From assembly GCF_003018235.1 (NCBI RefSeq), contig NZ_CP027437.1: a DNA stretch of 64,000 bases, one strand, 5' to 3'. Below are positions 3,646 to 60,563 of the stretch, in pieces. Source of the stretch: Escherichia coli (GTDB taxonomy: Bacteria; Pseudomonadota; Gammaproteobacteria; Enterobacterales; Enterobacteriaceae). The notes under the pieces are model-generated. The model worked only from the letters and a program-made list of their open reading frames with translations. It searched no databases and was not told where the DNA came from. Within the stretch, counting starts at the first letter, position 1, and every line of letters starts with the position of its first letter. The translations under genes and the position numbers were made by a program.

Positions 3646-3846
3646 ATGGATCATAGTCTTAATTCTTTAAATAATTTCGATTTCCTGGCGCGTAGTTTTG
3701 CCAGAATGCACGCAGAAGGTCGCCCGGTCGATATTCTGGCCGTTACTGGTAACATGGATGAAGAACATAGAACCTGGTTTTGCGCACGTTATGCCTGGTA
3801 TTGCCAACAGATGATGCAAACCAGAGAACTTGAATTAGAACACTGA
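3646..3846 (+). CDS. glgS: GlgS, small stationary-phase protein
   Basis: 66-aa translation [18 protein letters not shown]... matches GlgS; GGAGGA RBS 8 nt upstream of ATG 3646. Confidence 0.9.
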
Positions 3847-3850
3847 TATT

Positions 3851-3873
3851 ACGGGCCGTCTGGCCCGTTTTTG
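3851..3873. terminator. Bidirectional rho-independent terminator between convergent glgS and ubiK
   Basis: Hairpin CGGGCC-GTCT-GGCCCG followed by TTTTT. Confidence 0.6.
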
Positions 3874-3880
3874 TGTTGCT

Positions 3881-4180
3881 TTATTCTGCTTTATCAATAG
3901 GCGGGATAGCCGGAGGAGATTGAAGATCTGCTACCGAATTATTGCGCGCTTCCAGTTCACTGATGCGCTGCTCCAGTAATGCCAGTTTCTCACGAGTCCG
4001 TAACAGGACTTGCGTCTGTACGTCGAATTCTTCGCGGCTCACCAGATCGAGACGCGTCAGCTGCCCTTGTAGGGTTTGGCGGATTTTTTTCTCCACATCT
4101 TCCCCGAACTCCCTGATTCCTTTAGGCATTGATTCGTGAACCTGGCGAGCGATTTGCTCAATTTTTTTCGGGTCAATCAT
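3881..4180 (-). CDS. ubiK: UbiK (YqiC), ubiquinone biosynthesis accessory factor
   Basis: Translation [32 protein letters not shown]... matches YqiC/UbiK; start taken at internal Met of the longer ORF. Confidence 0.85.
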
Positions 4181-7446: not shown

Positions 7447-8118
7447 TTAGCCTCTGATGATTTTAAGCGCCCATGCGCCACTCATAATGACCAGCAGCAC
7501 CAGACACATACCAAAAGCCAGCATACAAGCCTGAGCCATATTCATAAAATGCCATGGTGGTAGCAGATACCAGCCTTCAGATTGCTGATACATTTCCACA
7601 AACCACTGTTGCGTGCTGCTCAGTGTGACGCCATCAGGAACGATTGGTGCGTCATAGCCACAATCCCCGGTAGGCTTGAACCAATTTGGTGCCCACTGTG
7701 CCAGCGGCAGGTTAAAGGGAAAAGTTGGATCGGTAGAGCACCCCTGTACGCCAAACAGTGAATCGGGATCCGGATTATGTACTGCATGGTGGATATCGTT
7801 CAGTTTGAGCGAAAACTTCAGTCCCAAAATGCTGCCGTAAAATGCCATCACGCAGCCAATTAGCTTTAGGATGATGTTCTTTGGGTTGATCGCTGCAACC
7901 AATCCTCCAATAACCATCACAAACATGGCGTAGCGAATGTATACACATTGCTCACAGGGTGCCATGTAGAGATAGATCTGGAAAAAAGAGTGCGCCAGGA
8001 TAATTAACGCGCCCATCGCAATGGCCATTAACAACCACAAAAAACGTTGTTCTTGCCATCTTACCAGCGTGTCCACCGGTGAAGTGCGAAGGTCTTTCCA
8101 CATTCCCTTAATACCCAT
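7447..8118 (-). CDS. dsbI: DsbI, DsbB-like membrane thiol oxidase
   Basis: 223-aa multi-TM ORF with CxxC-type cysteines, last gene of the assT-dsbL-dsbI operon. Confidence 0.85.
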
Positions 8119-8132
8119 AGCCTGTTTCCCTG

Positions 8133-8801
8133 TTATTTGCTTGCTAACTCGCGGATAAGGTCTGCCATTGAGTCAATAGATTTAATACTCTTGGTGTAGA
8201 TCAGGTATTTACCATTGACGACATACGCCGGAACGCCCTGGATTTTTGCAACTTCATAAGAGGCTTTCCATTTTTCCAGCGTTTCCTGAACTGCAGGCTC
8301 TTTCAGCGCGGCTTCAAAATCGGCCTGACTCATACCTGCGGCGTCCAGTCCGGTTGTGATAAAGGCAGCCGGATCTTTACCATCAGACCAGCGTTCTTTT
8401 TTGTCATGATAAGCCGCGTAATAAGCAAACTTGGCTTTCTTAAACTGAGAGTTAGCATCAAATAATGAAATACCTGCTGCTTTATCTTTATTGATCAAGA
8501 CCGCAAAGACTTCGCTTGCTTGTTTGCCGTATTCACCTTTTGTTTCCAGATGGAATGGAGTAAAAGCAACGATATCTTTCACTTTTTCCGATACCGGACC
8601 GGTAACCGCTTTGTCGTACTTGTAACAGAACGGGCAGGCGTAGCTAAATACCTTAATCAGCGTTTTGTCGGCATTCGGAATAGGTTTTTCCAGAACCATG
8701 TAATCCGTGCCTTCGGTAAATGCAGAAGCGGTAAATGAAACAGCCAAAGCTGCGGTAAGCAGTATGGTTTTAAATAGTGATGAGATCCCTAATTTCGACA
8801 T
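8133..8801 (-). CDS. dsbL: DsbL, periplasmic DsbA-like thiol:disulfide oxidoreductase
   Basis: 222-aa ORF with signal peptide and CPFC active-site motif. Confidence 0.85.
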
Positions 8802-8818
8802 TTTTATTCCCTTCTTAA

Positions 8819-10615
8819 TTATTTGAACATCTGTTGTGGACGGACTAACAGTGCACGATAGTGAGTCTGATTGGGTTTATCTGACAGCACGTCGATTTCC
8901 ACTTTCACTTCTTTGGTTTTGTAATCGATTTCGTTCAACTTACCGACGGTTGGCTGCCCGACATCGAACAAATGAATAGAACCACCGAAGCCAAACATGG
9001 TGTTACGGTCGGCTTGATATTCAATGATGGAGGTAATCGGGCTATAGAAATCGTAGCCACGTTCTTTACCGTATTCCCACACTTGCTGAACGGTGCCTTT
9101 CTTCTCATCAATCTTATATTCCACAAAGCGGGAGTATTTCATGGTTGGTAAGGCAGGTTGTTCCAGATGACGCCCATCGCCATTATCAAAAATGGTGAGC
9201 GTTCCTTTGCTGGAAATCCAGGCGGTATGCTGGGTGTAGGTAAAGTCGAAGTCTGAGTTTTCGCACAGGCCATTTTCGTTACAGGTAATTGGCTTACCGT
9301 TAGCATCAACCGGTTTCAGCAGCTTGCTGGCCAGCGGTTTTTCCCAACCTTTAGAGGGCGCAAGGATCCATTTCACTTGCTTATCACGACCAATTTTCAC
9401 AACACCCTGGTGGCGAGAGGAGAGGATGATTGAGTCGTCTTTTGCGTCATAGGCGATTGAGTTAACGTGCGCCCAGTTACGACCTGGCCCTACACCCAGC
9501 GCGTCGCCGAACGGTGTATCTGGTTCCAGTTTTGCCTGTTGTCCTGCATGGGCAAGGTCAACGTTAACGCAAACTGCACCTGCATCCAGCGCGCCGAGCA
9601 GTGCATCGCGTTTCGGATCGAGGATCTTGGTCAGATCCCATACATCGACAACGCGACCAGATTTATCGACTTCGAGGATATGGTCACGAATGGTGGTGAC
9701 GTGTACGCCGTCATCGCGACGATAGTTACTCTTACCTACGCGCAACAGTACCGTGCCATTTGGCATCTCAATGGACTCATGAGTAGCGTCAGCAAATCCG
9801 CGCGGTAGTTTGTGATCTTCGAGCACCTGCCCCATCATGTCGAACTCGTACCAGTGCTGACCTTGTACAGCGGTAAAGGTGCCGCGTGGCGTTTCGCGGA
9901 TACCCATCAGATAACCACGCTTGTTGATATCGCGGTCACGACCATCGTAGAAAGTGTCTTGATCCAGCCACCAGCGGTATTCACCTTCGGTATCGACGAT
10001 GAAAGTAAAGGGCGCGATATCAAAAGGTAGTGCGCCGGTTGCCGGACCCGCATCAAGGATACCGGCATTTTTATCTTTCTCACCATGCCAGTGGAGATCG
10101 GAACCTTGGGCGGTAAAGGTGTGGGTATTAACCAGATAGAGGCGATCTTCAAAACCCGGTGCGACTTTAATAACTTTGGTCTGTTGTAAATCGGAGATAG
10201 AGCGGTTATCCATGTAATTATTGACGATGGCCGAAGTGTGCACCACATAATCATCTTTCATGACCTTGCCGTTTTCTTTCCACTCAACGGTCACTTTGTT
10301 AGCAAATTTCTGATAAAGACCAAAAATCGGTACACCATCGTAAGTTTTTAGTGATTCCTGACCCACGGGATAGCTGATTTCTACGCCTTTTTCGCCCTTC
10401 CCATGGACGGTAACTTTGACGTCAGAAATAACATGGCTATCTAAGTCAACCAAAGCGGTCAGTGGTGCATTGCCGTAGGGATCGACAATGACCGCACCCA
10501 GTTGCCCGGCAGGCGGTGCGGGTTTAAAACCTGCTGCCATCACCCCCGGTGCTGACAAACCCAGAGTTATCGCCACAGCTCCGGCTACCAGAGTTTTTCT
10601 ATATTTATCAAACAT
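8819..10615 (-). CDS. assT: AssT, periplasmic arylsulfate sulfotransferase
   Basis: 598-aa ORF with signal peptide; matches the ASST family; first gene of the three-gene operon. Confidence 0.9.
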   Translation of the reverse strand: MFDKYRKTLVAGAVAITLGLSAPGVMAAGFKPAPPAGQLGAVIVDPYGNAPLTALVDLDSHVISDVKVTVHGKGEKGVEISYPVGQESLKTYDGVPIFGLYQKFANKVTVEWKENGKVMKDDYVVHTSAIVNNYMDNRSISDLQQTKVIKVAPGFEDRLYLVNTHTFTAQGSDLHWHGEKDKNAGILDAGPATGALPFDIAPFTFIVDTEGEYRWWLDQDTFYDGRDRDINKRGYLMGIRETPRGTFTAVQGQHWYEFDMMGQVLEDHKLPRGFADATHESIEMPNGTVLLRVGKSNYRRDDGVHVTTIRDHILEVDKSGRVVDVWDLTKILDPKRDALLGALDAGAVCVNVDLAHAGQQAKLEPDTPFGDALGVGPGRNWAHVNSIAYDAKDDSIILSSRHQGVVKIGRDKQVKWILAPSKGWEKPLASKLLKPVDANGKPITCNENGLCENSDFDFTYTQHTAWISSKGTLTIFDNGDGRHLEQPALPTMKYSRFVEYKIDEKKGTVQQVWEYGKERGYDFYSPITSIIEYQADRNTMFGFGGSIHLFDVGQPTVGKLNEIDYKTKEVKVEIDVLSDKPNQTHYRALLVRPQQMFK

Positions 10616-15847: not shown

Positions 15848-16675
15848 TTGGAAAGCCTGTTAACCCTTCCTCTGGCTGGTGAGGCCAGAGTCAGGATTTT
15901 ACAAATTACCGACACTCACCTGTTTGCGCAAAAGCACGAAGCCCTGTTAGGGGTAAACACCTGGGAAAGCTACCAGGCGGTGCTGGAGGCGATTCGGCCA
16001 CACCAGCACGAATTCGACCTGATTGTCGCGACAGGTGATTTAGCGCAGGATCAATCCTCTGCGGCCTATCAGCATTTCGCTGAAGGCATCGCAAGTTTTC
16101 GTGCGCCCTGCGTCTGGCTGCCGGGCAACCACGATTTCCAGCCCGCGATGTACAGCGCGTTACAGGATGCGGGTATCTCCCCGGCGAAGCGGGTGTTTAT
16201 TGGTGAGCAATGGCAAATCCTGTTGCTGGATAGCCAGGTGTTTGGCGTGCCGCACGGTGAGCTGAGCGAGTTTCAGCTTGAGTGGCTGGAACGTAAACTG
16301 GCCGATGCGCCAGAACGCCATACGTTGCTGCTGCTGCATCATCATCCGCTACCTGCAGGTTGTAGTTGGCTTGATCAACACAGCCTGCGTAACGCGGGCG
16401 AACTGGATACCGTGCTGGCGAAGTTTCCGCACGTCAAATACTTGCTGTGCGGTCATATTCATCAGGAGCTGGATCTCGACTGGAACGGTCGCCGCCTGCT
16501 GGCAACGCCGTCGACCTGTGTGCAGTTTAAGCCGCACTGTTCCAACTTTACGCTGGACACCATCGCGCCCGGCTGGCGTACTCTCGAGTTACATGCTGAT
16601 GGCACGCTGACCACCGAGGTGCATCGCCTGGCGGACACACGTTTCCAACCTGATACCGCTTCAGAAGGCTACTGA
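15848..16675 (+). CDS. cpdA: CpdA, 3',5'-cAMP phosphodiesterase
   Basis: 275-aa ORF matching CpdA; starts at TTG. Confidence 0.9.
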
Positions 16676-17281: not shown

Positions 17282-19177
<1,896 letters not shown>

Positions 19178-19206
19178 TAATCCTCCCGCCAGAAGAATAA
19201 AACATA

Positions 19207-19238
19207 GCCCGGTATACAAGTGTATACCGGGCTTTTTT
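19207..19238. terminator. Rho-independent terminator after parE, shared with the convergent receptor gene
   Basis: Stem GCCCGGTATAC / GTATACCGGGC followed by TTTTTT. Confidence 0.7.
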
Positions 19239-19240
19239 GA

Positions 19241-21382
19241 TCAAAATTCCATTTTCACCGTGAATTGCACTTCACGCGGATCGCCAATCTGATTCCCCAG
19301 ATTATTTGTGGCGATGGAAGAGGTGTAATACGTTTTATCAAACAGGTTTTTGACGTTTAATTGCAGTGTGACCGGATACTGCAATTTCATTTTGTATGCG
19401 GCGAAGGCATCGGCAACGAAATAGCCTGGCAGATAATAGTCAGCCCCATTGGTTGCCGAACGACGGCTTACGCCATGTCCACCACCGCCAAACGTCAGTG
19501 TGTTATTGCCTGGCATGTTATGAATGTCATAGGTCAGGAATAGCGAACCGGTATGACGAGGAACATTCGGCAATGGTTTCCCTGCATAATCAGGATCCTC
19601 CAGAACCTTAGCATCGGTATAGCCGTAGCTGGCAATGATATTAATGTTTTCAGTTAATGCTCCCGCAAGGTCGACTTCTACCCCTCTTGAACGAACGCGG
19701 CCTGCCGTTTTGGCGATGGTTTCATCACCAATACTTTCGGTATACAACACGTTACGTTTATGGATATCAAACAGCGCAATATCTGCGGTTATACCATCGA
19801 ACAGCTCGAATTTTGCCCCGACTTCGTAAGCATTAGATGATTCCGGTGGAAGATCGCCAATGTAGCTGGCAATTGACGATTGCGGCATAAATGTTTGCGA
19901 ATAATTAGCAAATAAGGATACCGATGGCGTCAGTTTGTAGACTAACCCCAGTTTGGGCGTCCATTGTTCATCGCGGCTGTCAGTATTGACATTAAAAGGA
20001 CGGCCTTTACCCGCATACTGCGTGTAATACTGATAGCGGATCCCGGCGACGGCAATCCAGTTATCGGTCAGATAGAGTGCGTCCTGTGCATACGCTGAGT
20101 AGCTCTCCTGTTTGATCGTCTGATCACTGTCCGACGCCGAAACCGTTGTACATTTGCTGGTATTACCATAAACAGGGTTGTAGATATTGAAATCTTTAGC
20201 TTTTTTACAGCGAATCATATCTGTGCGCAGAAGATCATAATATTCATATGACACCCCACCCAGAATCTCATTATAGAACCCAGCAATATCAACATTCCCT
20301 TGCAGATCCGCACGAGTAGAATGCATACGCTGGGTAGATCCCTGAGTTGCATCAACACGCCGTGTCAGCGTTCCTGTCGTTGCATCATACGCGGTAACGC
20401 GAGCCTGATTGTCGCTGTATTTATCCTGGCTGTAGCTGTAATCAAAGCGCGCTGTCCACTGGCTATTGAGATGATATTCTGCGTTGAGTTGCGCCAGATC
20501 GGACTGACCATCTGTAATATTAAACGGTTCGTCAAAACGTATTTTTCGATCAACGTTTACGGGCTGTTTCGTCGTAAGGTCGAAAATCGTTCCACGATCG
20601 AACGGAGTTTTATAGTCCCGATGGGAATAGAGCATAGTTACTGTTGCATTATCACCAAACCAGGTGAGTGACGGGGCAATAAATGTACTGCGCTCTTTAC
20701 CGAAGTTTCGCCAGTAATCTTCATCCTGCACTTCCCCCGTCAGGCGGTATGCCAGCTGAGTGCCTTCAATGGGACCTGTGATATCAAGTTGCCCAGTGCC
20801 TCCGCCAAAACTGGAGGAGGTGGCTGAAACCGAACCATGGAATGTTTTTTCCGGGCGCTTGGTCACGACGTTAATCAGTCCACCAGGATCGAGAATGCCA
20901 TACAGCGTGGAGGCCGGACCTTTTAGCACTTCCACACGTTCTGTGGCGGCGTTGAAACTGCGAGGAAGTACAGTTCGCAGGCCGTTGGTCATGATGGAGC
21001 CATCCCGGTTAGCACCAAACCCACGACGTACAAAGGCGTCCTGAGTTCCGCCTAATGTATTGGTCTGTACCACGTTACTGACGTTATAAAGCGCTTCATC
21101 CAGCGTCGTCGCATTCTGATTTTCCAGAACCTGATCGCTAACCGTATTGACCACCTGCGGGATATCCAACATCGGCATATCGGTTAATGTCGCCGTGGAA
21201 GTGCTCAGAGGTTGATAACCATCGGTCGCCTCAGTTGCGGTATTTGCATCCGCTGTAACAGTGATTGTTTCGCCATCTTTGGTCGTTGCAGTGTCGGTTG
21301 CATGAATCATTGGTGCTGCAAAGAGCAGTGAAAAGAGCGCCCGACCTTTGATTCCTGAGAATGAAGGTGTGAACTTAGCCAT
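19241..21382 (-). CDS. TonB-dependent outer membrane receptor (siderophore/metal-chelate type)
   Basis: 713-aa ORF; signal peptide; TonB-box-like ETITVTA; plug plus beta-barrel; C-terminal aromatic residue (…KMEF). Confidence 0.9.
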   Translation of the reverse strand: MAKFTPSFSGIKGRALFSLLFAAPMIHATDTATTKDGETITVTADANTATEATDGYQPLSTSTATLTDMPMLDIPQVVNTVSDQVLENQNATTLDEALYNVSNVVQTNTLGGTQDAFVRRGFGANRDGSIMTNGLRTVLPRSFNAATERVEVLKGPASTLYGILDPGGLINVVTKRPEKTFHGSVSATSSSFGGGTGQLDITGPIEGTQLAYRLTGEVQDEDYWRNFGKERSTFIAPSLTWFGDNATVTMLYSHRDYKTPFDRGTIFDLTTKQPVNVDRKIRFDEPFNITDGQSDLAQLNAEYHLNSQWTARFDYSYSQDKYSDNQARVTAYDATTGTLTRRVDATQGSTQRMHSTRADLQGNVDIAGFYNEILGGVSYEYYDLLRTDMIRCKKAKDFNIYNPVYGNTSKCTTVSASDSDQTIKQESYSAYAQDALYLTDNWIAVAGIRYQYYTQYAGKGRPFNVNTDSRDEQWTPKLGLVYKLTPSVSLFANYSQTFMPQSSIASYIGDLPPESSNAYEVGAKFELFDGITADIALFDIHKRNVLYTESIGDETIAKTAGRVRSRGVEVDLAGALTENINIIASYGYTDAKVLEDPDYAGKPLPNVPRHTGSLFLTYDIHNMPGNNTLTFGGGGHGVSRRSATNGADYYLPGYFVADAFAAYKMKLQYPVTLQLNVKNLFDKTYYTSSIATNNLGNQIGDPREVQFTVKMEF

Positions 21383-21481
21383 TTAGTCTGTTATCCCAAA
21401 AACTCACGGATTGTCGTGAGTGAAAATTGTTTCTTGTTGCTCACTAAGCACTATCCGTTTGTTATTTCACCATCGGATATG

Positions 21482-21500
21482 TAATTGAGAATCATTCAAC
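21482..21500. promoter_or_regulatory. Fur-box-like site in the divergent receptor/ABC promoter region
   Basis: TAATTGAGAATCATTCAAC; core TGAGAATCATT matches Fur consensus TGATAATCATT at 10 of 11 positions. Confidence 0.4.
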
Positions 21501-21755
21501 CATGCGGTGATGTAGTAGTAAATGAGAAATAACAAAAAATTGCTACATGTGTTTTTATGAGAGGTTAATGCAATTCAATTGATGGTAATTTATTAATATT
21601 TAATGGTTTTATTTTTATCTTTAAAAATATTTCACCTGTTATTTACCTTGTTTTTGTATGGCTTTTAACTTCTTGACTACTACATTTTGTGGCGTCAAAC
21701 TCTCAAAGGAGAATGAGTTTTATTTTTGTTTGTCTTTGATTAAGTTGGCGTACAC

Positions 21756-22565
21756 GTGGCACATAACGCAAAAGGGCAGGGGCTGATCCTCGACAATGTT
21801 TCTGCCGGGTATCACACGAAAATCATTGTTGATGGCGTTTCTTTCTCCGTTCCCACAGAAAAAATGACCGTTCTGGTTGGGGCAAACGGCTGTGGAAAGT
21901 CGACGTTGCTCAGCACCATTGCACGTATCTTGCAACCTATGGGCGGCTCGATATTGCTGGATGGTAAAGCGATTCACGAGCAACCAACGAAAGCGTTATC
22001 CCGTAGACTTGGGATCTTGCCGCAGTCGCCATTATTGCCGGAGGGCTTAACCGTTTATGAACTGGTGTCGCGTGGGCGTTTTCCCTGGCAGAATTTCATT
22101 CGTCAATGGAGCGACGCCGACGAGCAGGCGGTAGAAGAGGCCCTGAAATTAACCGGTACGCAGGAGTTTGCACATTTACCTGTTGAAAAACTTTCTGGTG
22201 GGCAGCGCCAGCGTTGCTGGATTGCGATGGTGTTGGCGCAAAAGACGCCTTATATCCTGCTGGATGAACCCACAACCTGGCTTGATTTACGTTATCAGGT
22301 TGAAATTCTTGAGTTATTACATGATTTAACGCGTCATCACGGGCGTACAGTCGTCGTGGTGTTGCATGATCTGAATTTTGCCGTCAATTATGGTGATACG
22401 TTGATATTTTTACGCCAGGGGAAAGTGGTGCGTGTGTTGAATGAGGGGGAGCATTGCACGCCTGAGCTGGTAAAAGCTGTCTTTGACGTTGATGTTCACG
22501 CATCAATAAATCCTCTGACGGGAAAGCCGTTCTTCATGCCGTTTCGTGGTGTAGAAAAAGTATGA
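21756..22565 (+). CDS. ABC transporter ATP-binding protein (FepC/FecE-like)
   Basis: Walker A GANGCGKST, signature LSGGQRQR, Walker B ILLDEPT, H-loop; GTG start. Confidence 0.85.
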   Translation: MAHNAKGQGLILDNVSAGYHTKIIVDGVSFSVPTEKMTVLVGANGCGKSTLLSTIARILQPMGGSILLDGKAIHEQPTKALSRRLGILPQSPLLPEGLTVYELVSRGRFPWQNFIRQWSDADEQAVEEALKLTGTQEFAHLPVEKLSGGQRQRCWIAMVLAQKTPYILLDEPTTWLDLRYQVEILELLHDLTRHHGRTVVVVLHDLNFAVNYGDTLIFLRQGKVVRVLNEGEHCTPELVKAVFDVDVHASINPLTGKPFFMPFRGVEKV

Positions 22566-23545
22566 TGCGCACAGGGCTGGTTACTGTAATTTTCCTCGCC
22601 TTACTGCTGGTGGGATGCGTGGTATATCCAGGGATTGGTGCCCGATTTATTGCACCACAAACGGTGTTGCAGGCATTTCTTCATTTTGAACCGCAAAACT
22701 TCGATCACAACGTAATTGTAAGACTCCGTTTGCCGCGTTTAGCGGCAGCATTGCTTACCGGTGCTTCTCTTGGAGTTGCTGGTGCTTTGTTGCAGGCTGT
22801 CATTCGTAACCCATTGGGGGAGCCACATATTTTAGGCTTAAATGCCGGAGCCGCTCTTGCTGTCGTTGCTGCCAGTGCGCTTGGGCTGGCCTTTCCGGTT
22901 GGACGCCCACTGCTGGCATCTACGGGCGGCGCGTTATTGTTCCTGTTGATATTGCTGCTTTCCTCCGCAGGGCGTTCAGGGTTAACGCCAATGAAAGTTA
23001 CTTTATGCGGCGTGGCGCTATCGGCGTTCGTGTCCTCAATAACGGCTGCAATCCTGATTCTTGACGAACAAACACTGCTGGCGATGCGGACATGGCTAGC
23101 AGGTGATTTAGCGGGGCAGGATTGGGCGACGCTGGGTACGTCCGCCTGGTTTTCTCTGGGGGGGGTTGTGTTAGCCATTTACCTTGCGCCCTCTCTTAAC
23201 ATGTTGGCACTGGGTGATCGCATGGCGCAGGGGCTGGGCGTCTCGGTACTCCGCACGCGAACATTCACTCTGCTTGCGATCGCGTTGCTCTGTGGCGCAG
23301 CCGTATCGATTGCTGGCCCCATTGGTTTTGTCGGTCTGCTAGTACCGCAGATTGTCAGGCGTCTGGTATCTGCGGATCTGCGCGTTCTGCTCCCTCTTTC
23401 AGCTTGTGTCGGTGCCTTACTGCTATTACTGGCAGATATTATTGCCCGGACGCTTTTCACGCCCCATGAGCTGGCGACCGGTGTCATGACGGCGTTAGTT
23501 GGTGCGCCCGTTTTTGTCATTATGGCGACGAGGATGTTCAAATGA
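22562..23545 (+). CDS. ABC transporter permease, FecCD family
   Basis: 327-aa multi-TM ORF; start overlaps the ATPase stop. Confidence 0.85.
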   Translation: MMRTGLVTVIFLALLLVGCVVYPGIGARFIAPQTVLQAFLHFEPQNFDHNVIVRLRLPRLAAALLTGASLGVAGALLQAVIRNPLGEPHILGLNAGAALAVVAASALGLAFPVGRPLLASTGGALLFLLILLLSSAGRSGLTPMKVTLCGVALSAFVSSITAAILILDEQTLLAMRTWLAGDLAGQDWATLGTSAWFSLGGVVLAIYLAPSLNMLALGDRMAQGLGVSVLRTRTFTLLAIALLCGAAVSIAGPIGFVGLLVPQIVRRLVSADLRVLLPLSACVGALLLLLADIIARTLFTPHELATGVMTALVGAPVFVIMATRMFK

Positions 23546-24591
23546 GTCGGATAATGAACGTCGGGCTACGTCCACTACGTGTTGGTAAGTTTTCGACACT
23601 GGTACGCCCTAAAAATCTGGTGTTGCTTGGTGGGCTGTTTCTGTTTGCGGTTGGAATACTGATATTCGGTCTGATGCATGGTTCTTTTTCTGTCCCAGCA
23701 TCGGAAGTAGGACGAGCGTTGTTTGCTCCAGAAAACGTAAGCACAGACGCACGTTATATTGTGCAGGATATTCGCTTGCCGAGAGTCATCATGGCATTGC
23801 TATGCGGAGCCATGTTAGGTATGGCGGGGGCCGCGATGCAATCCATTGCGCGTAACGGCCTTGCCGATCCTGGTTTAATCGGCGTCAAAGAAGGATGTAG
23901 CGTGGCGGTGCTGTGGCTGATTTTCCAGTTTCCAATGCTGGGAATGTTCTGGCGTCCAGTGGCTGGTCTTGCTGGTGGCTTGTTGGTGGCTTTAATCGTG
24001 ATTTTTTGTGCGCGCGATATTTCCCGCCCGCGATTTGTTCTGATTGGTATTGGTGTTTCCTGGTTTTTCGCCGCCGGTATCGGTGTATTTATGACCACTG
24101 CAGATGTTCGAGATGTACAAACTGCATTGATGTGGTTATCGGGAAGCCTGCATGCAGCTAACTGGATGTTAGTCGGTATTTCAGCCTGTTGGATGTTGCC
24201 AGCCGCTCTTTTATTGCTGTTCACCGCCAGGACGGCAGATATCGCTCTGCTTGGTCATCAGGTTGCAACCGGGTTAGGGGTGAATAGTTCTCGTCTGGCG
24301 TTGTTACGTGTCGCCGCACCAATAATCCTGACCGCCGTCTGCGTTTCGTGTGTTGGTAACATCGGTTTTGTCGGATTGATAGCACCCCATATATCACGTT
24401 TTATTCTACGTGGCGGGCAGACGACATTACTGCTGGGGAGCGCCGTATCGGGGGCGTTGTTAGTCATCCTGGCGGATAGCATTGGTCGTTTGGCTTTTTT
24501 GCCTTTGCAACTGCCTGCCGGAATCATTATTTCATTGATTGGTGGACCATTCTTTTTGCTACTGCTCTGGCAGCGCAGGAACAGTTTTTAA
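23542..24591 (+). CDS. ABC transporter permease, FecCD family (second)
   Basis: 349-aa multi-TM ORF; start overlaps the previous stop. Confidence 0.85.
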   Translation: MSRIMNVGLRPLRVGKFSTLVRPKNLVLLGGLFLFAVGILIFGLMHGSFSVPASEVGRALFAPENVSTDARYIVQDIRLPRVIMALLCGAMLGMAGAAMQSIARNGLADPGLIGVKEGCSVAVLWLIFQFPMLGMFWRPVAGLAGGLLVALIVIFCARDISRPRFVLIGIGVSWFFAAGIGVFMTTADVRDVQTALMWLSGSLHAANWMLVGISACWMLPAALLLLFTARTADIALLGHQVATGLGVNSSRLALLRVAAPIILTAVCVSCVGNIGFVGLIAPHISRFILRGGQTTLLLGSAVSGALLVILADSIGRLAFLPLQLPAGIIISLIGGPFFLLLLWQRRNSF

Positions 24592-24601
24592 TGGGAGTTA
24601 T

Positions 24602-25549
24602 ATGCGTTTATTTTTTTCTCTGCTGATACTGTTGTCATTCTTTGCCCGAGCGACAGAACCTGTTCAGGTCTTTACTGATGATTTAGGGCGCAAAGTCACT
24701 GTTCCTGCTCATCCAAAGAGAATTGTCTCTTTACACGATCTTGATATCACTATTCCTCTGATTGAGCTCGGTGTACCTCCTGTCGCCAGCCACGGGCGAA
24801 CCCGGCCTGACGGTAGCCATTTCATTCGATCAGGCGCGTTATTGACAGGTGTCGACTTTGATAATTCATCGATCGCTTTTATTGGCACCGCTGATATTGA
24901 TATTGAAGCGATTGTGGCGGCAAAGCCTGACCTGATCATCACAGAACCGACCCGTAATACGCCCATTGAACAACTGGAAAAAATTGCGCCCACGGTGAGC
25001 ATTGATCATCTCAAAGGAGGCGCGCCAGAAATCTACCGCAAGCTGGCAGAACTTACAGGAACGCAGTCGCAGCTGGCGATACTTGAACGCCGCTATCAGG
25101 CACAAATCAATGCGCTGAAGGCGACGCTGGACAGCCAAAAAATAACGGTATCGGTGATTCAGGCAAATCAGGGAAAAATTAATGTGATGCATAGCTATCA
25201 TTCGCTGGGGCGGGTATTACGCGATGCTGGTTTTCGCTTTCCGCCGCTGATTGAGAGCATTCCTGAAGGTGGGCGAATGGGTGTGAGCGCAGAGCGTTTA
25301 CCTGAACTGGATGCCGATTTTGTTTTTGCAACCTGGCGCGGTGACACCGGTGGTAAACCTCAGGATGAGCTGGCAGCAATGGAAAAAGTCATGCCGGGAT
25401 GGTGTCAGTTTCTGACGGCCTGTCGTTCCGGGCGCTATGTGCTGATTTCTCGTGAAGAGGCGATTTCTAACTCCTTTGCATCTCTGGGGCTGATGGCTGC
25501 GCAGATACAATCACAAATTGCGGGACGACCTCTACCGGAGGCTAAATGA
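24602..25549 (+). CDS. Periplasmic substrate-binding protein (siderophore/cobalamin-type)
   Basis: 315 aa from MRLFFSLLILLSFFARA with signal peptide; GGAG RBS 4 nt upstream of ATG 24602. Confidence 0.8.
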   Translation: MRLFFSLLILLSFFARATEPVQVFTDDLGRKVTVPAHPKRIVSLHDLDITIPLIELGVPPVASHGRTRPDGSHFIRSGALLTGVDFDNSSIAFIGTADIDIEAIVAAKPDLIITEPTRNTPIEQLEKIAPTVSIDHLKGGAPEIYRKLAELTGTQSQLAILERRYQAQINALKATLDSQKITVSVIQANQGKINVMHSYHSLGRVLRDAGFRFPPLIESIPEGGRMGVSAERLPELDADFVFATWRGDTGGKPQDELAAMEKVMPGWCQFLTACRSGRYVLISREEAISNSFASLGLMAAQIQSQIAGRPLPEAK

Positions 25550-26433
25550 TCCAGAAAGACAAAACGCGGGTTGATATTTATGGTGAGTGTTTTCGCACTC
25601 GCGCGAGTCAGTTAACGCCTGGGTTAAGAGCTGTCGCAAGCTACATTAATGAGCATCGTGAAGTGGTACTCGAGCAAACGGCGATGGAAATTGCGGCCAC
25701 GTTGAACACTTCCGATGCCACAGTTATCAGGGCTATACAGGCTCTGGGGTTTGCCGGGCTGCGTGATCTGAAACGCACACTGGAACAGTGGCTTGGTCCA
25801 GCCCTTAGTTCCAGCGAAAAGATGTCTACGACGGTGAGTAACTTGACGTGCGATGTTAACACCGCAATCGACTTTGTTCTTGAAGGGCATTTGTATACTT
25901 GTAATGTCCTGTCAGAGCCTGAAAACCGCCACGCGCTTGAGCAAGCTGTAGCGTTGTTGGTGCAGGCACGGCAAGTCGCTATTTTTGGCATTGGCGCTTC
26001 GGGTATCCTGGCGGACTATACCGCACGACTATTCAACCGCATAGGTTTGCCTGCCACGGCACTAAACCGTACGGGTATTGGCCTTGCCGAGCAACTGATC
26101 GCGCTTCAACGTGGCGATGTTCTGATCATGATGGCGCAAAAATCTGCGCACCGGGAAGGGCTGACAACGCTTCGTGAGGCGAGGCGGCTGGGGATCCCTG
26201 TTATTTTGCTGACAAACGCGCTGGATTCACGTTTTAGCAAAGACGCCAGTATCGTGATTCATGTTCCGCGCGGGGATGAAAAGGGGAAAACGCCACTACA
26301 TGGTACGGTATTGTTGTGTCTGGAAATGATTGTCTGGTCGGTAGCTTCCGCAGTGCCGCAGCGTGCGGTTAAAACCATTAAGCGAATTAACGATTTCCAT
26401 CGAGGACTGAAAACGGGAAGAAAGAATGGCTAA
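25546..26433 (+). CDS. RpiR/MurR-family transcriptional regulator (N-terminal HTH, C-terminal SIS phosphosugar-binding domain)
   Basis: 295-aa ORF; HTH region then SIS-like VAIFGIGASG...; ATGA overlap with the binding-protein stop. Confidence 0.8.
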   Translation: MIQKDKTRVDIYGECFRTRASQLTPGLRAVASYINEHREVVLEQTAMEIAATLNTSDATVIRAIQALGFAGLRDLKRTLEQWLGPALSSSEKMSTTVSNLTCDVNTAIDFVLEGHLYTCNVLSEPENRHALEQAVALLVQARQVAIFGIGASGILADYTARLFNRIGLPATALNRTGIGLAEQLIALQRGDVLIMMAQKSAHREGLTTLREARRLGIPVILLTNALDSRFSKDASIVIHVPRGDEKGKTPLHGTVLLCLEMIVWSVASAVPQRAVKTIKRINDFHRGLKTGRKNG

Positions 26434-26441
26434 TCTGGGCT

Positions 26442-26470
26442 GAGACCGGTAGCAGCACCGGCCTCTTTTC
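26442..26470 (+). terminator. Terminator after the island operon
   Basis: Stem GAGACCGGT / ACCGGCCTC (one mismatch) followed by TTTT. Confidence 0.45.
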
Positions 26471-26477
26471 AGGAATG

Positions 26478-27496: not shown

Positions 27497-27761
27497 TAGC
27501 AAAAGTCTGATCTTGCTCTGACTCACCGATGCAGGATAAATATTTTCTGAAAATGACAATACTGATAGCAATTTCTCATCATTCCAACTAGCACAGGGTT
27601 AATTTACAACGTTGGTGTGGACTTTCTGCGAGTTGATAATTGTGGTGTTGAATAACTAAAAATGAAAATATCAGCGTGTTACGCAGATTATTTTAAATAG
27701 ATTTACTGGAGGGTATCGAAAACCAGATCTCCGACTGGACTTTTTTAGAGAGTGCTAACAT

Positions 27762-28139: not shown

Positions 28140-29489
28140 TTACCAGCTTACCTTCGCCTCAAATCCACCTTGTTCCGCATTCCCAAACTCAACATTCATG
28201 CCATGCAATTTGGCGATCCGCTGGACAATCGATAGCCCAAGTCCACTGCCGGTAGCGGTTTGTCCGGGTGGGCGATAGAAGCGTTCGCCAATTCTCGCCA
28301 GTGCCTCTGGCGTCACACCGGGGCCGTTATCCCTCACGATGAAATTTTCGGCATTCAGCGTGACGTCCACCACGCTGCCCTGTGGACTGTAGCGCACGGC
28401 GTTATCCAGAAGGTTTCGTACCAACAAACTTAGCAACAGCGGTTGTCCGGTGCGTTTGATGCCGTGGGCATTGAGTGTCAGTCGCACGTCAATTTTCGCC
28501 TGCTGCGCCGTGTGGTAAATATCCATCACCGATGATTGCAGGAGATCTTCAAGCGGGATCTCCGCGACGTCCTGAAGGTTATCCAGTGAGTCCAGCCGCG
28601 ATAGCGTGAGCAGTTGATCAACCAGACGAGTAGCACGATCGATTCCGGAATGTAATTGAAGCAGCGCTTTTTTCCGCGCCTGCGGATCATCGTCAGAGAG
28701 CTGCGCAACTTCGGTTTGCACTTTCAGCGCCGTTAACGGGCTACGAAGTTCGTGAGCTGCGTCGGAGGTAAAGCGTCGTTCTCGAACCATCATCGCATGT
28801 GTGCGGGCGAACAGTTGATTCAACGACTCAACCAGTGGACGCACTTCGCTGGGTACGCCCGTCGCGTTTAGTGGTTTTTCCGAGTCAGGGTCACGCATAC
28901 GTAGTGCCAGCGCCAGTTTGTTCAGCGGCGCGAGTTCACGACCCAGTAGTACCATCATGATGATTAACATAATCGGCAGTGCGACAAGCCACGGGATCAA
29001 TTGCCCTGCAACAATCGCCAGCGCCATGTCTTCGCGGTATTCCCATTCCTGACCAACAACGATGCGATATTTGCCATCAGGTGAGGTCATCCAGACAAAA
29101 CGCCAGGGATCGTCTTCACCGACCAGTTGCCCGTCAGCAAAACCTTCCCGTTGATAGCTATAGGGAATATCTTCTCCGTTATCGCCATCGTTAAGGACCA
29201 TTCTGCCGTCGTGGGTAAAGATGGCAAAGGTTAGCGCATCGTCATCAACATGACCGTGTTTTAATTTATTTGGCGTCTGTGCCATGCGATCTGCCGCGTT
29301 GATTTCGTTGAGATCGAGCGTACTTAACCGCTTGGCAAACAGCATCAGTTGGGTGTCGAACAACTCATCGACGTTATCCGTTGTTTGTTTCCAGGCGACA
29401 AAGCTGGAAAGCAGCCAGGTCACTGAGGCCAGAATTAAAAAGATTAGCGTCAGCCTGACTCGCAGACTAAGACGTTGGGTAAATTTCAT
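28140..29489 (-). CDS. qseC: QseC, sensor histidine kinase
   Basis: 449-aa ORF with two TM helices, HAMP, H-box and ATPase motifs. Confidence 0.9.
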
Positions 29490-30145
29490 TTCTCACCTAA
29501 TGTGTAGCCAATACCATGAACGGTACGAATAAAATCACTGCCGAGTTTGCGTCGCAGATGATGCACATGCACTTCAACGGCATTACTGGTGACCTCTTCG
29601 TCCCAGGTATACAGTTTCTCTTCAATCAGTTTGCGCGGCAGTACCCGACCAGCGTTACGCATCAGTAATTCCAGCAGGGCAAATTCTTTTGGTTTCAGAG
29701 TTAAGGGTTCGCCAGCCAGCGTGGCGATACGTTTGCCGGGGTCGAGCATGACGTTACCGTGGCGCAGTTCGTTGCTGGCCTGGCCGTTGGTTCGGCGCAT
29801 CAGAGCTTCCAGCCTGGCGGCGACTTCTATCAACGCAAAAGGTTTACACAGATAATCGTCAGCTCCCAGACGCAGCCCCTCTACACGTTCCGCTAACGCA
29901 TCGCGCGCGGTCAGGATCAGTACCGGCTCACGCTGACCTTTTTCTCGCCATTCGCGCAAAATATCGCGACCATCCATGCCTGGTAAGGTTAAATCCAGGA
30001 TCACCGCATCATAAGGCGCACTATATAGCGCCTCTTTTCCCTGACGACCTTGTGTAAACCAGTCGACGCTAAAACCCATTTTACTAAGGCCCGTTTTGAT
30101 GCCGTCGCCAATCAGCATGTCATCTTCTATCAGTAAAATTCGCAT
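29486..30145 (-). CDS. qseB: QseB, OmpR-family response regulator
   Basis: 219-aa receiver plus winged-helix ORF; 4-nt overlap with qseC. Confidence 0.9.
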
Positions 30146-30296: not shown

Positions 30297-30689
30297 ATGA
30301 AAAAATTCGCAGCAGTAATCGCAGTAATGGCCCTGTGCAGCGCACCGGTGATGGCAGCAGAGCAGGGCGGTTTTTCTGGCCCATCGGCAACGCAAAGTCA
30401 GGCCGGAGGATTCCAGGGGCCGAACGGCAGCGTAACGACCGTAGAAAGCGCAAAATCCCTGCGTGACGACACCTGGGTAACCCTGCGCGGCAATATCGTT
30501 GAACGCATCTCTGACGATCTCTACGTGTTCAAAGATGCCAGCGGTACTATCAATGTTGATATCGACCACAAACGCTGGAACGGCGTGACGGTGACGCCGA
30601 AAGATACGGTTGAGATTCAGGGTGAAGTCGATAAAGACTGGAATTCTGTTGAAATTGACGTCAAACAGATCCGCAAAGTAAATCCGTAA
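30297..30689 (+). CDS. ygiW: YgiW (VisP), BOF-family periplasmic stress protein
   Basis: 130 aa from MKKFAAVIAVMALCSAPVMA; start at internal Met of the longer ORF. Confidence 0.85.
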   Translation: MKKFAAVIAVMALCSAPVMAAEQGGFSGPSATQSQAGGFQGPNGSVTTVESAKSLRDDTWVTLRGNIVERISDDLYVFKDASGTINVDIDHKRWNGVTVTPKDTVEIQGEVDKDWNSVEIDVKQIRKVNP

Positions 30690-30741: not shown

Positions 30742-31224
30742 ATGACAAACCTGACACTGGATGTAAATATTATCGATTTCCCATCAATCCCTGTGGCGAT
30801 GTTGCCGCACCGCTGTAGCCCTGAGTTGCTCAACTACAGCGTGGCGAAATTTATCATGTGGCGTAAAGAGACGGGGCTTTCTCCTGTTAACCAAAGCCAG
30901 ACTTTTGGCGTCGCCTGGGACGACCCTGCCACCACCGCACCGGAAGCGTTTCGCTTTGATATCTGCGGCAGCGTTAGCGAACCGATCCCCGATAATCGTT
31001 ATGGTGTGAGTAATGGTGAACTTACCGGTGGACGTTATGCTGTGGCCCGCCATGTTGGCGAGCTGGACGATATTTCACACACGATATGGGGCATCATTCG
31101 CCACTGGCTACCTGCAAGCGGCGAGAAAATGCGTAAAGCACCGATTCTGTTTCACTACACCAATCTTGCCGAAGGGATGACAGAGCAGCTACTGGAAACG
31201 GATGTTTATGTACCGTTAGCGTGA
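30742..31224 (+). CDS. ygiV: YgiV, GyrI-like domain protein
   Basis: 160-aa ORF in the position of K-12 ygiV. Confidence 0.8.
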   Translation: MTNLTLDVNIIDFPSIPVAMLPHRCSPELLNYSVAKFIMWRKETGLSPVNQSQTFGVAWDDPATTAPEAFRFDICGSVSEPIPDNRYGVSNGELTGGRYAVARHVGELDDISHTIWGIIRHWLPASGEKMRKAPILFHYTNLAEGMTEQLLETDVYVPLA

Positions 31225-31332
31225 TGGAGAATCTTTACCGGAGTGTGAGCCACATCACTCGCGATAAGTTTGAGCGAACAATGCCACAGGCGTATTGTTG
31301 TCGGGCTTATAATTTCTCCGGTAAGGAATACC

Positions 31333-32940
31333 ATGTATACGCGAAATTTATTATGGCTGGTCAGCCTGGTAAGTGCGGCTCCTCTCTACGCTGCTGACGT
31401 TCCCGCCAACACACCGCTCGCCCCGCAACAAGTCTTTCGTTACAACAATCATAGCGACCCAGGTACGCTCGACCCGCAAAAGGTAGAGGAGAATACTGCC
31501 GCGCAGATTGTGCTGGATCTGTTTGAAGGTCTGGTATGGATGGACGGTGAAGGCCAGGTGCAGCCCGCTCAGGCTGAACGCTGGGAGATACTGGACGGCG
31601 GCAAGCGCTATATTTTCCATCTGCGTAGCGGTTTGCAGTGGTCAGACGGTCAGCCTCTGACGGCAGAGGATTTTGTCCTCGGCTGGCAGCGCGCGGTTGA
31701 CCCGAAAACGGCAAGCCCTTTTGCTGGCTATCTGGCACAGGCGCACATTAACAATGCCGCGGCTATTGTTGCGGGTAAAGCAGATGTTACATCGCTGGGT
31801 GTCAAAGCGATGGATGATCGTACTCTTGAAGTTACGCTTGAGCAGCCGGTTCCTTGGTTCACGACGATGCTCGCCTGGCCGACGCTGTTCCCGGTTCCCC
31901 ATCATGTCATCGCGAAATATGGCGATAGCTGGAGTAAGCCTGCGCATATGGTTTACAACGGTGCCTTTGTGCTTGAACAGTGGGTAGTTAACGAAAAGAT
32001 TACTGCACGCAAAAATCCAAAGTACCGCGATGCGCAACATACAGTATTGCAACAGGTTGAGTATCTGGCGCTGGATAATTCGGTCACCGGCTATAACCGC
32101 TATCGCGCGGGAGAGGTCGATCTCACCTGGGTTCCGGCGCAGCAAATTCCCACCATTGAAAAATCACTGCCTGGCGAGCTACGAATTATCCCGCGTCTGA
32201 ACAGCGAATATTACAACTTTAACCTTGAGAAACCGCCATTTAACGATGTGCGGGTGCGTCGGGCGCTATATCTTACGGTTGATCGACAGCTTATTGCGCA
32301 AAAGGTACTGGGGTTGAGAACGCCCGCAACCACGCTGACGCCGCCAGAGGTAAAAGGCTTTAGCGCGACGACGTTCGATGAACTGCAAAAGCCAATGAGT
32401 GAGCGTGTCGCGATGGCAAAAGCCTTGCTGAAACAGGCGGGATACGACGCCTCTCATCCGCTACGCTTTGAGCTGTTCTACAACAAGTACGATCTGCATG
32501 AAAAAACCGCGATAGCGTTGTCTTCCGAATGGAAAAAATGGCTGGGTGCACAGGTGACGCTGCGCACAATGGAGTGGAAAACTTATCTTGATGCCCGACG
32601 AGCCGGTGATTTCATGCTGTCGCGGCAGTCGTGGGATGCGACGTATAATGATGCTTCCAGCTTCCTGAACACGCTCAAAAGCGATAGTGAAGAAAACGTC
32701 GGTCACTGGAAAAATGCGCAGTATGACGCCTTACTAAACCAGGCCACGCAGATCACTGATGCGACAAAGCGTAATGCGTTGTATCAGCAGGCAGAAGTGA
32801 TCATCAACCAACAGGCACCGCTGATTCCTATCTACTATCAGCCGTTAATCAAACTGCTTAAACCCTACGTTGGCGGTTTTCCGCTGCATAATCCCCAGGA
32901 TTATGTCTACAGCAAAGAGTTGTATATCAAGGCACATTGA
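31333..32940 (+). CDS. ygiS: YgiS, periplasmic solute-binding protein (OppA/DppA family)
   Basis: 535 aa from MYTRNLLWLVSLVSAAPLYA with signal peptide; start at internal Met of the longer ORF. Confidence 0.85.
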   Translation: MYTRNLLWLVSLVSAAPLYAADVPANTPLAPQQVFRYNNHSDPGTLDPQKVEENTAAQIVLDLFEGLVWMDGEGQVQPAQAERWEILDGGKRYIFHLRSGLQWSDGQPLTAEDFVLGWQRAVDPKTASPFAGYLAQAHINNAAAIVAGKADVTSLGVKAMDDRTLEVTLEQPVPWFTTMLAWPTLFPVPHHVIAKYGDSWSKPAHMVYNGAFVLEQWVVNEKITARKNPKYRDAQHTVLQQVEYLALDNSVTGYNRYRAGEVDLTWVPAQQIPTIEKSLPGELRIIPRLNSEYYNFNLEKPPFNDVRVRRALYLTVDRQLIAQKVLGLRTPATTLTPPEVKGFSATTFDELQKPMSERVAMAKALLKQAGYDASHPLRFELFYNKYDLHEKTAIALSSEWKKWLGAQVTLRTMEWKTYLDARRAGDFMLSRQSWDATYNDASSFLNTLKSDSEENVGHWKNAQYDALLNQATQITDATKRNALYQQAEVIINQQAPLIPIYYQPLIKLLKPYVGGFPLHNPQDYVYSKELYIKAH

Positions 32941-33077: not shown

Positions 33078-35336
33078 ATGAGCGATATGGCAGAGCGCCT
33101 TGCGCTACATGAATTTACGGAAAACGCCTATTTAAACTACTCCATGTACGTGATCATGGACCGCGCGTTGCCGTTTATTGGTGATGGTCTGAAACCTGTT
33201 CAGCGCCGCATTGTGTATGCGATGTCTGAGCTGGGCCTGAATGCCAGCGCCAAATTTAAAAAATCGGCCCGTACCGTCGGTGACGTACTGGGTAAATACC
33301 ATCCGCACGGCGATAGCGCCTGTTATGAAGCGATGGTCCTGATGGCGCAGCCGTTCTCTTACCGTTATCCGCTGGTTGATGGTCAGGGGAACTGGGGCGC
33401 GCCGGACGATCCGAAATCGTTCGCGGCAATGCGTTACACCGAATCCCGGTTGTCGAAATATTCCGAGCTGCTATTGAGCGAGCTGGGGCAGGGGACGGCT
33501 GACTGGGTACCAAACTTCGACGGCACTTTGCAGGAGCCGAAAATGCTACCTGCCCGTCTGCCAAACATTTTGCTTAACGGCACCACCGGTATTGCCGTCG
33601 GCATGGCGACCGATATTCCACCGCATAACCTGCGTGAAGTGGCTCAGGCGGCAATCGCATTAATCGACCAGCCGAAAACCACGCTCGACCAGCTGCTGGA
33701 TATCGTGCAGGGGCCGGATTATCCGACTGAAGCGGAAATTATCACTTCGCGCGCCGAGATCCGTAAAATCTACGAGAACGGACGTGGTTCAGTGCGTATG
33801 CGCGCGGTGTGGAAGAAAGAAGATGGCGCGGTGGTTATCAGCGCATTGCCGCATCAGGTTTCAGGTGCGCGCGTACTGGAGCAAATTGCTGCGCAAATGC
33901 GCAACAAAAAGCTGCCGATGGTTGACGATCTGCGCGATGAATCTGACCACGAGAACCCGACTCGTCTGGTGATTGTGCCGCGTTCCAACCGCGTGGATAT
34001 GGATCAGGTGATGAACCACCTCTTCGCAACCACCGATCTGGAAAAGAGCTATCGTATTAACCTCAATATGATCGGTCTGGATGGTCGTCCGGCGGTGAAA
34101 AACCTGCTGGAAATTCTCTCCGAATGGCTGGTGTTCCGCCGCGATACCGTGCGCCGCCGACTGAACTATCGTCTGGAGAAAGTCCTCAAGCGCCTGCATA
34201 TCCTCGAAGGTTTGCTGGTGGCGTTTCTCAATATCGACGAAGTGATTGAGATCATTCGTAATGAAGATGAACCGAAACCGGCGCTGATGTCGCGGTTTGG
34301 CCTTACGGAAACCCAGGCGGAAGCGATCCTCGAACTGAAACTGCGTCATCTTGCCAAACTGGAAGAGATGAAGATTCGCGGTGAGCAGAGTGAGCTGGAA
34401 AAAGAGCGCGACCAGTTGCAGGGCATTTTGGCTTCCGAGCGTAAAATGAATAACCTGCTGAAGAAAGAACTGCAGGCAGACGCGCAAGCCTACGGTGACG
34501 AACGTCGTTCGCCGTTGCAGGAACGCGAAGAAGCGAAAGCGATGAGCGAGCACGACATGCTGCCGTCTGAACCTGTCACCATTGTGCTGTCGCAGATGGG
34601 CTGGGTACGCAGCGCTAAAGGCCATGATATCGACGCGCCGGGCCTGAATTATAAAGCGGGCGATAGCTTCAAAGCGGCGGTGAAAGGTAAGAGCAACCAA
34701 CCGGTAGTGTTTGTTGATTCCACCGGTCGTAGCTATGCCATCGACCCGATTACGCTGCCGTCGGCGCGTGGTCAGGGCGAGCCGCTCACCGGCAAATTAA
34801 CGTTGCCGCCTGGAGCGACCGTTGACCATATGCTGATGGAAAGCGACGATCAGAAACTGCTGATGGCTTCCGATGCGGGTTACGGTTTCGTCTGCACTTT
34901 TAACGATCTGGTGGCGCGTAACCGTGCAGGTAAGGCTTTGATCACCTTACCGGAAAATGCCCATGTTATGCCGCCGGTGGTGATTGAAGATGCTTCTGAT
35001 ATGCTGCTGGCAATCACTCAGGCAGGCCGTATGTTGATGTTCCCGGTAAGCGATCTGCCGCAGCTGTCGAAGGGCAAAGGCAACAAGATTATCAACATTC
35101 CATCGGCAGAAGCCGCGCGTGGAGAAGATGGTCTGGCGCAACTGTACGTTCTGCCGCCGCAAAGCACGCTGACCATTCATGTTGGGAAACGCAAAATTAA
35201 ACTGCGTCCGGAAGAGCTACAGAAAGTCACTGGCGAACGTGGACGCCGCGGTACGTTGATGCGCGGTTTGCAGCGTATCGATCGTGTTGAGATCGACTCT
35301 CCTCGCCGTGCCAGCAGCGGTGATAGCGAAGAGTAA
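33078..35336 (+). CDS. parC: ParC, topoisomerase IV subunit A
   Basis: 752-aa ORF matching ParC. Confidence 0.95.
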
Positions 35337-59105: not shown

Positions 59106-59173
59106 TGATTAAAGCCGGATGCGGCGTAAATTGAACTGCACCCCAAATGTTGGACACAATCTGACATCTGAAG

Positions 59174-59704
59174 GTGCAGTTTATGAAACATTCATTTGAA
59201 GTAAAACTTGCCGCTGTAAATCATTACCTGGCCGGTCATGCAGGCATCATTTCTACGGCAAAACTCTTTCAACTTTCTCACACCAGCCTCTCACACTGGA
59301 TTAATCTTTTTCTTCTTCACGGTCCTCAGGCACTGGATTGCAGACACAAGCGTAGCTATTCTCCTGAAGATAAACTTTGCGTGGTTCTTTATGCTCTCGG
59401 GCATTCTGAGTCTCTACCCCGGGTAGCTGCCCGGTTTAACATTCCCAGCCACAACACGGTTAAAAACTGGATAAAAGGCTACCGCAAATCTGGTAATGAG
59501 GCCTTTATCAGGCGCAGGAAGGAGAAAAGCATGACCCGTTCTGATGATACCCATGAAAACGAGGCAAACATGACGCCGGAAGAGATGAAGAATGAGCTGC
59601 GTTATCTTCGCGCAGAAAATGCATATCTGAAAGCCATGCAGGAGCATCTCCTGGAAAAAAAGCGCCAGGAGCTGGAGAAAAAACGAAAGTCATCCGGAGC
59701 CTGA
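59174..59704 (+). CDS. IS3-family transposase OrfA (HTH / leucine-zipper part)
   Basis: 176-aa ORF, GTG start; contains slippery heptamer A_AAA_AAG at 59656-59662. Confidence 0.85.
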   Translation: MQFMKHSFEVKLAAVNHYLAGHAGIISTAKLFQLSHTSLSHWINLFLLHGPQALDCRHKRSYSPEDKLCVVLYALGHSESLPRVAARFNIPSHNTVKNWIKGYRKSGNEAFIRRRKEKSMTRSDDTHENEANMTPEEMKNELRYLRAENAYLKAMQEHLLEKKRQELEKKRKSSGA

Positions 59705-59808
59705 GGTGCGGACACTGCCAGTCTGACCTGTTAAAGGCTGCAGGGCTGGCCAGAAGCACGCTGTACTACCAGCTGTCACTGCAGAAGGCTAAGGACAAGT
59801 ATGCTGAT

Positions 59809-60563
<755 letters not shown>

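Follow-up and report, generated by a model that had tools for sequence, protein, structure and literature searches.

The 108-bp spacer between ygiV and ygiS in this E. coli strain appears, with high confidence, to be an ancestral intergenic region that the mqsRA toxin-antitoxin cassette never entered, and the strain very probably has no MqsR or MqsA anywhere. The reading is drawn from comparisons of the junction with K-12, with other Escherichia lineages and with the complete E. coli genomes. At this well-known accessory toxin-antitoxin (TA) locus, absence of mqsRA is nothing unusual: it is the ancestral state and that of the majority. K-12 represents the minority, derived state at this site.

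The window, i.e., the whole 64-kb stretch of DNA that was analysed, corresponds to the parE-ygiQ segment of E. coli in inverted orientation relative to K-12 numbering. Strain Ecol_545 is colinear with it and 99.4% identical over 20 kb, and its RefSeq annotation matches the gene calls (Table 1). Both neighbours of the spacer are intact. YgiV is GyrI-like (Pfam, E = 1.3e-35), and YgiS belongs to SBP_bac_5 (Pfam, E = 1.4e-83). The spacer extends from the ygiV stop codon (31222-31224) to the ygiS ATG at 31333, and the ORF list has no reading frame wholly inside it. Two mechanical ORFs overlap the spacer (31221-31397 on the plus strand and 31206-31334 on the minus strand); both continue into the neighbouring genes and are without a Pfam match.

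Table 1. Features of the ygiV-ygiS junction and its surroundings in the window
Feature	Position	Strand	Evidence and remarks
qseC	28140-29489	-	ORF list; agrees with Ecol_545 RefSeq annotation
qseB	29486-30145	-	ORF list; agrees with Ecol_545 RefSeq annotation
ygiW	end at 30689	+	ORF list; agrees with Ecol_545 RefSeq annotation
ygiV, 160 aa, GyrI-like transcriptional regulator	30742-31224	+	Left flank of the site, intact; ORF list, Pfam, Ecol_545 RefSeq annotation
ygiV-ygiS intergenic spacer, 108 bp, unoccupied mqsRA site	31225-31332	+	Sequence; alignments with K-12 and other Escherichia
GAGAA, 5 nt at the position of the K-12 cassette	31227-31231	+	blastn breakpoints, alignment
Inverted repeat, 5' arm TCTTTACCGGAG	31232-31243	+	Repeat search; starts immediately 3' of the insertion point
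TATAAT hexamer, perfect; possible -10 element of a ygiS promoter	31308-31313	+	Read from the sequence
Inverted repeat, 3' arm CTCCGGTAAGGA	31316-31327	+	Repeat search; holds the ygiS Shine-Dalgarno AAGGA (31323-31327)
ygiS, 535 aa, periplasmic family-5 solute-binding protein	31333-32940	+	Right flank of the site, intact; ORF, Pfam, annotation
parC	33078-35336	+	ORF list; agrees with Ecol_545 RefSeq annotation

No trace of the module was found in the window. The tblastn searches with the K-12 proteins gave no gene for the MqsR toxin (about 98 aa; best E = 1.5) or for the MqsA antitoxin, a protein of about 131 aa with a zinc-binding N-terminal domain and an HTH-XRE domain (best E = 1.6), in the 64 kb. 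A blastn search (word size 7) with the 1,030-bp K-12 interval detected no remnant in the window in the form of a scar, a partial gene or a terminator; only the shared 101 bp matched. Palindromes of the operator type, ACCT-N(2-4)-AGGT, occur three times in the 64 kb, at 16351, 24658 and 27411. This is at chance level, as 19 of 100 shuffles reach the same count, and the window scan found none near the spacer.

In the RefSeq annotation of MG1655, the gene order is parC-ygiS-mqsA-mqsR-ygiV-ygiW-qseB-qseC, with mqsA (b3021) and mqsR (b3022) between ygiS (b3020) and ygiV (b3023). This type II TA locus, also named ygiU-ygiT (b3022-b3021), has its neighbourhood in common with the window, namely qseBC-ygiW-ygiV on one side and ygiS-parC on the other, and over the 101 bp preceding ygiS the two are 98% identical. 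In contrast to K-12, the window is devoid of the entire 927-bp cassette, comprising the promoter, two ACCT-N4-AGGT palindromes, mqsR, mqsA and the terminator. According to the alignment and blastn, positions 3167820-3168746 of NC_000913.3 stand against only the five nucleotides GAGAA. In the K-12 locus extract (L001), where the cassette occupies 7821-8747, position 8748 corresponds to window position 31226 and position 7820 to 31232; the left breakpoint has an ambiguity of 1 nt. Outside the indel, the two sequences are collinear at 97-98% identity, with nucleotide identities of 97.3% for ygiV and 98.6% for ygiS.

The K-12 cassette starts with about 200 bp of promoter region holding two ACCTTTTAGGT operator palindromes, followed by mqsR, mqsA and a terminator. 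The latter is a hairpin with a T-run, and its end lies exactly at the right junction. The GC content of the cassette is 41.1%, compared to 52-53% for ygiV and ygiS and 50.7% for the window. Neither target-site duplications nor terminal inverted repeats were found at the cassette ends in a repeat search. Three statements of the earlier note can be settled at this point. The coordinates, the ORF list and Pfam agree on the ORF-free gap of 108 bp it had described. The position of mqsRA in K-12 that it had given is the annotated one, and the possibility that ygiV and ygiS are adjacent in K-12 as well, because of a wrong gene order or a misannotation, is thereby refuted. As for the claim that the strain is without mqsRA at the canonical site, it is borne out by the K-12 junction alignment and the null tblastn result in the window.

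The direction of the change can be read from other members of the genus. One YgiV scan of species-representative genomes provided five non-K-12 Escherichia lineages as outgroups, namely E. albertii, E. whittamii, Escherichia sp. E1V33, MOD1-EC7003 and SCPM-O-B-8794, the last a divergent genome labelled 'E. coli'. MqsR and MqsA are absent beside ygiV in all five. In three of them (E. albertii, E. whittamii and an Escherichia sp.), a spacer of 108-110 bp separates ygiV from an intact ygiS; ygiV is followed by a decayed ygiS in the remaining two (L005 and L007). The outgroup spacers are orthologous to that of the window and align with it over the full length, insertion point included. This point reads GGGAA or GGGA in the outgroups and in E. 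coli strain PI6, and GAGAA in the window. Since other Escherichia have the same empty junction, the K-12 state is best described as a derived insertion. The outgroup alignment and the low GC content of the cassette together argue that the window carries the ancestral site, never occupied. The word 'absent' used in the earlier note is thus appropriate for mqsRA at this site, but it should not be understood as 'lost', since the outgroup junctions are likewise empty.

The distribution of the cassette was determined in 5,426 complete E. coli genomes. It is present in 2,299 of them, always at 99% identity or more and always on the chromosome. A contiguous ygiV-ygiS junction of the window type occurs in 1,754 genomes, among others in the O157:H7 strain ECP19-2498, and a further 1,354 have an empty site with ygiS replaced by an unrelated segment of about 240 bp. 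Together, these three haplotypes account for 5,407 of about 5,424 genomes. The module is missing altogether from 3,127 of the 5,426 (58%). A sensitive blastn search with the coding region returned the same 2,299 genomes as megablast, and no divergent copy was detected in the E. coli genomes. Decay of the module was observed in some carriers: IS1 interrupts or adjoins mqsR, or lies between mqsA and ygiS (L004 6295-6992; L013 7208-7498; H31 and H136), and strain JNEC-KY203 has an mqsR pseudogene next to an intact mqsA.

The third haplotype, represented by strain PI6 (NZ_CP074042.1), resembles the window in its empty mqsRA site (GGGAA) and its spacer. Unlike in the window, ygiS consists of its first 22 nt and its last 40 nt or so around the unrelated sequence (L003 4331-4570 in PI6). 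A remnant of a group II intron was considered as the source of this segment, and Rfam gave no support for it. ygiS has been lost repeatedly, as it is degraded in the 1,354 E. coli genomes and in two outgroup lineages.

Sequence diversity differs between the cassette and its surroundings. Across the junction query, most genomes share only 95-99% identity with the window, as against at least 99% for the cassette in all 2,299 carriers. The insertion breakpoints are uniform among the carriers listed (query positions 202 and 208). The flanks of the four carriers examined are K-12-like, with 99.9-100% identity in ygiS, whereas empty-site genomes differ by 1-3%. K-12-like flanks in the carriers are compatible with a single insertion and its joint spread with the flanking sequence. 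The following course of events would be consistent with these data. Just behind the ygiV stop codon, a self-contained cassette of 927 bp would have entered an ancestor of the K-12-like local haplotype, replacing 5 nt. From there, vertical inheritance and homologous recombination of the flanks would have carried it to about 42% of the sequenced E. coli; the strain studied here carries the older allele. Both the single insertion event and the mode of spread are suggested by low diversity and linkage rather than by a phylogeny.

Alternatively, the site may once have been occupied in this lineage, with mqsRA removed later through a deletion or through recombination with an empty allele. Decay of TA cassettes does occur in E. 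coli, as illustrated by the carriers with IS1 in or beside mqsR or with an mqsR pseudogene and an intact mqsA, and allele replacement through recombination would be scarless. Nevertheless, secondary loss is distinctly improbable here. The empty site has the pentanucleotide and the spacer of the outgroup species, which a simple deletion would not restore. Moreover, the flanks in the window are 1-3% different from the mqsRA-linked haplotype, and the window contains no partial cassette.

It is also conceivable that mqsRA or a close homologue is located elsewhere on the chromosome or on a plasmid, as the window covers 64 kb of the genome. MqsR-family pairs with 57-68% amino-acid identity are found on plasmids of Rahnella, Pectobacterium, Yersinia, Burkholderia and other genera, which indicates that the family is mobile. 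However, the 2,299 carriers among the 5,426 E. coli genomes have mqsRA only on the chromosome, and the counts fit this site only. For disjoint classes, 7,706 BLAST places were expected and 7,726 were observed; a second query gave 11,784 for 11,759 expected. These numbers leave essentially no room for empty-site genomes with a cassette elsewhere. Two E. coli 'plasmid' records in PLSDB match mqsRA. The one of 353 kb shows the chromosomal context ygiV-mqsRA-ygiS-parC, and the one of 4.9 Mb is, judged by its length, chromosome-sized. Hence, no E. coli record in PLSDB demonstrates a plasmid-borne copy; MqsR had no match in phages either, and the window holds no second copy. Relocation is therefore hardly credible: given the counts across the 5,426 genomes, an mqsRA copy elsewhere in the strain is very unlikely. 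A pair of the MqsR family so divergent that its DNA identity falls below about 65% could be encoded in the genome beyond the 64-kb window.

Apart from being the insertion site, the spacer probably carries the translation start signals of ygiS and perhaps its promoter too. A putative K-12 ygiS promoter is listed in RegulonDB, as quoted in PMC5120126. A consensus scan of the spacer found no acceptable -35 element and no full sigma-70 promoter consensus. The two 12-nt arms of the inverted repeat are 92% complementary and form the outer stem of a predicted RNA fold. The fold of positions 31232-31327 is a stable multi-stem structure with a minimum free energy of -42.6 kcal/mol, compared to -29.3 +/- 3.6 kcal/mol for shuffled sequences (z = -3.7), and its outer 12-bp stem covers the ygiS Shine-Dalgarno sequence. 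The sequence of this structure is conserved across six Escherichia alleles, and none of the 37 pairs shows a compensatory change (RNAalifold). A search of the spacer against Rfam families gave matches at chance level only, the best being to an archaeal snoRNA (E = 0.13). A scan of the spacer also revealed a weak terminator-like hairpin of 5 bp at 31281-31293. In K-12, the cassette lies directly 5' of the fold element, which is left intact.

One might ask whether the spacer is a structured leader, whose outer stem masks the ribosome-binding site of ygiS in read-through transcripts from ygiV, and whether the mqsRA cassette altered the supply of ygiS transcripts. This is a tentative and rather unlikely reading, suggested by the predicted fold. 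With such a leader, translation of ygiS would depend on its own promoter or on a structural switch. The cassette would have landed in the only short stretch free of structure between the end of ygiV and the element, a few nucleotides long, and its terminator would change which transcripts reach ygiS. If this were true, strains with and without mqsRA would differ in the expression of ygiS, and thus in deoxycholate uptake, for a reason unrelated to the RNase activity of MqsR. Such a difference would bear on the disputed bile phenotype attributed to MqsR and YgiS.

The uneven distribution of type II TA modules among strains, mqsRA included, has already been published (PMC7167474; PMC7232551; PMC11059956). 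According to a 2020 review, no type II TA system is common to MG1655, W, EDL933 and UTI89 (PMC7167474). An uneven phylogroup distribution of TA modules (Fiedoruk 2015) and the horizontal transfer of minimal TA cassettes into intergenic regions (Ramisetty and Santhosh 2016) were described earlier, as cited in PMC7167474 and PMC5120126. The AIEC strain NRG857c was reported to be without MqsRA (PMC7232551), and a PCR survey detected mqsRA in 42 of 88 urinary isolates (PMC11059956). The empty-site alleles of other chromosomal type II TA modules in E. coli are alike: a small, low-GC, self-contained cassette is present or absent between core genes, with no transposon signature, as here, and nothing essential differs. 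The empty mqsRA site is one further case of this kind, quantified here on 5,426 genomes. The polarity of the change and the census of three haplotypes agree with the published view that chromosomal TA modules are accessory cassettes acquired by horizontal transfer.

As for the consequences, MqsR-dependent regulation, e.g., of ghoST and ygiS mRNA, would be unavailable to the strain. The earlier note had considered the absence important for the persistence and biofilm phenotypes attributed to MqsRA. This importance was overstated, considering that 3,127 genomes are without mqsRA and that the biofilm and stress phenotypes were not reproduced in an independent study. Indeed, Fraikin et al. (2019) did not reproduce the biofilm, rpoS/csgD and deoxycholate phenotypes of MqsRA, and polar effects on ygiS were raised in the same study (PMC6918082). 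Absence of mqsRA is thus an established observation whose weight for the phenotype is uncertain. Furthermore, MqsRA phenotypes of K-12 cannot be general E. coli physiology, as about 58% of the complete genomes do not have the module.

Along the 64 kb, at least five presence/absence differences from K-12 were observed, mqsRA being one of them. An island of 7.3 kb at 19174-26477, between parE and ygiN, is not found in K-12. In the annotation of Ecol_545, it encodes a TonB-dependent siderophore receptor, an ABC ATPase, two FecCD-type permeases, a substrate-binding protein and a MurR/RpiR regulator. A 20-kb query containing this island is covered to 80% or more in at least 1,866 genomes. A cluster of aryl-sulfate sulfotransferase, dsbL and dsbI lies between ygiD and ygiC (about 7447-10615), based on colinearity with Ecol_545; ygiC and ygiD are adjacent in K-12, without this cluster. 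At about 3846-3881, glgS adjoins ubiK; in K-12, the two are separated by the ygiL-yqiGHI fimbrial operon, in which yqiG contains IS2. Compared to Ecol_545, the window has a 1.4-kb insertion between hybG and yghU (about 59132-60563) with two ORFs showing IS3-family features (HTH_28/HTH_Tnp_1 and the rve integrase core). Next to hldE, the ibs/sib type I toxin-antitoxin repeats (377-1043) are 94% identical to those of Ecol_545, the rest of the window being about 98-99% identical. Some genomes (L012 2337-3529; L015 135-1327) carry an orphan Hcp gene (type VI secretion) and a hypothetical gene between mdaB and ygiZ, both absent from the window and from K-12. Upstream of ygiZ, a short stretch at 27704-27742 differs between the window and K-12.
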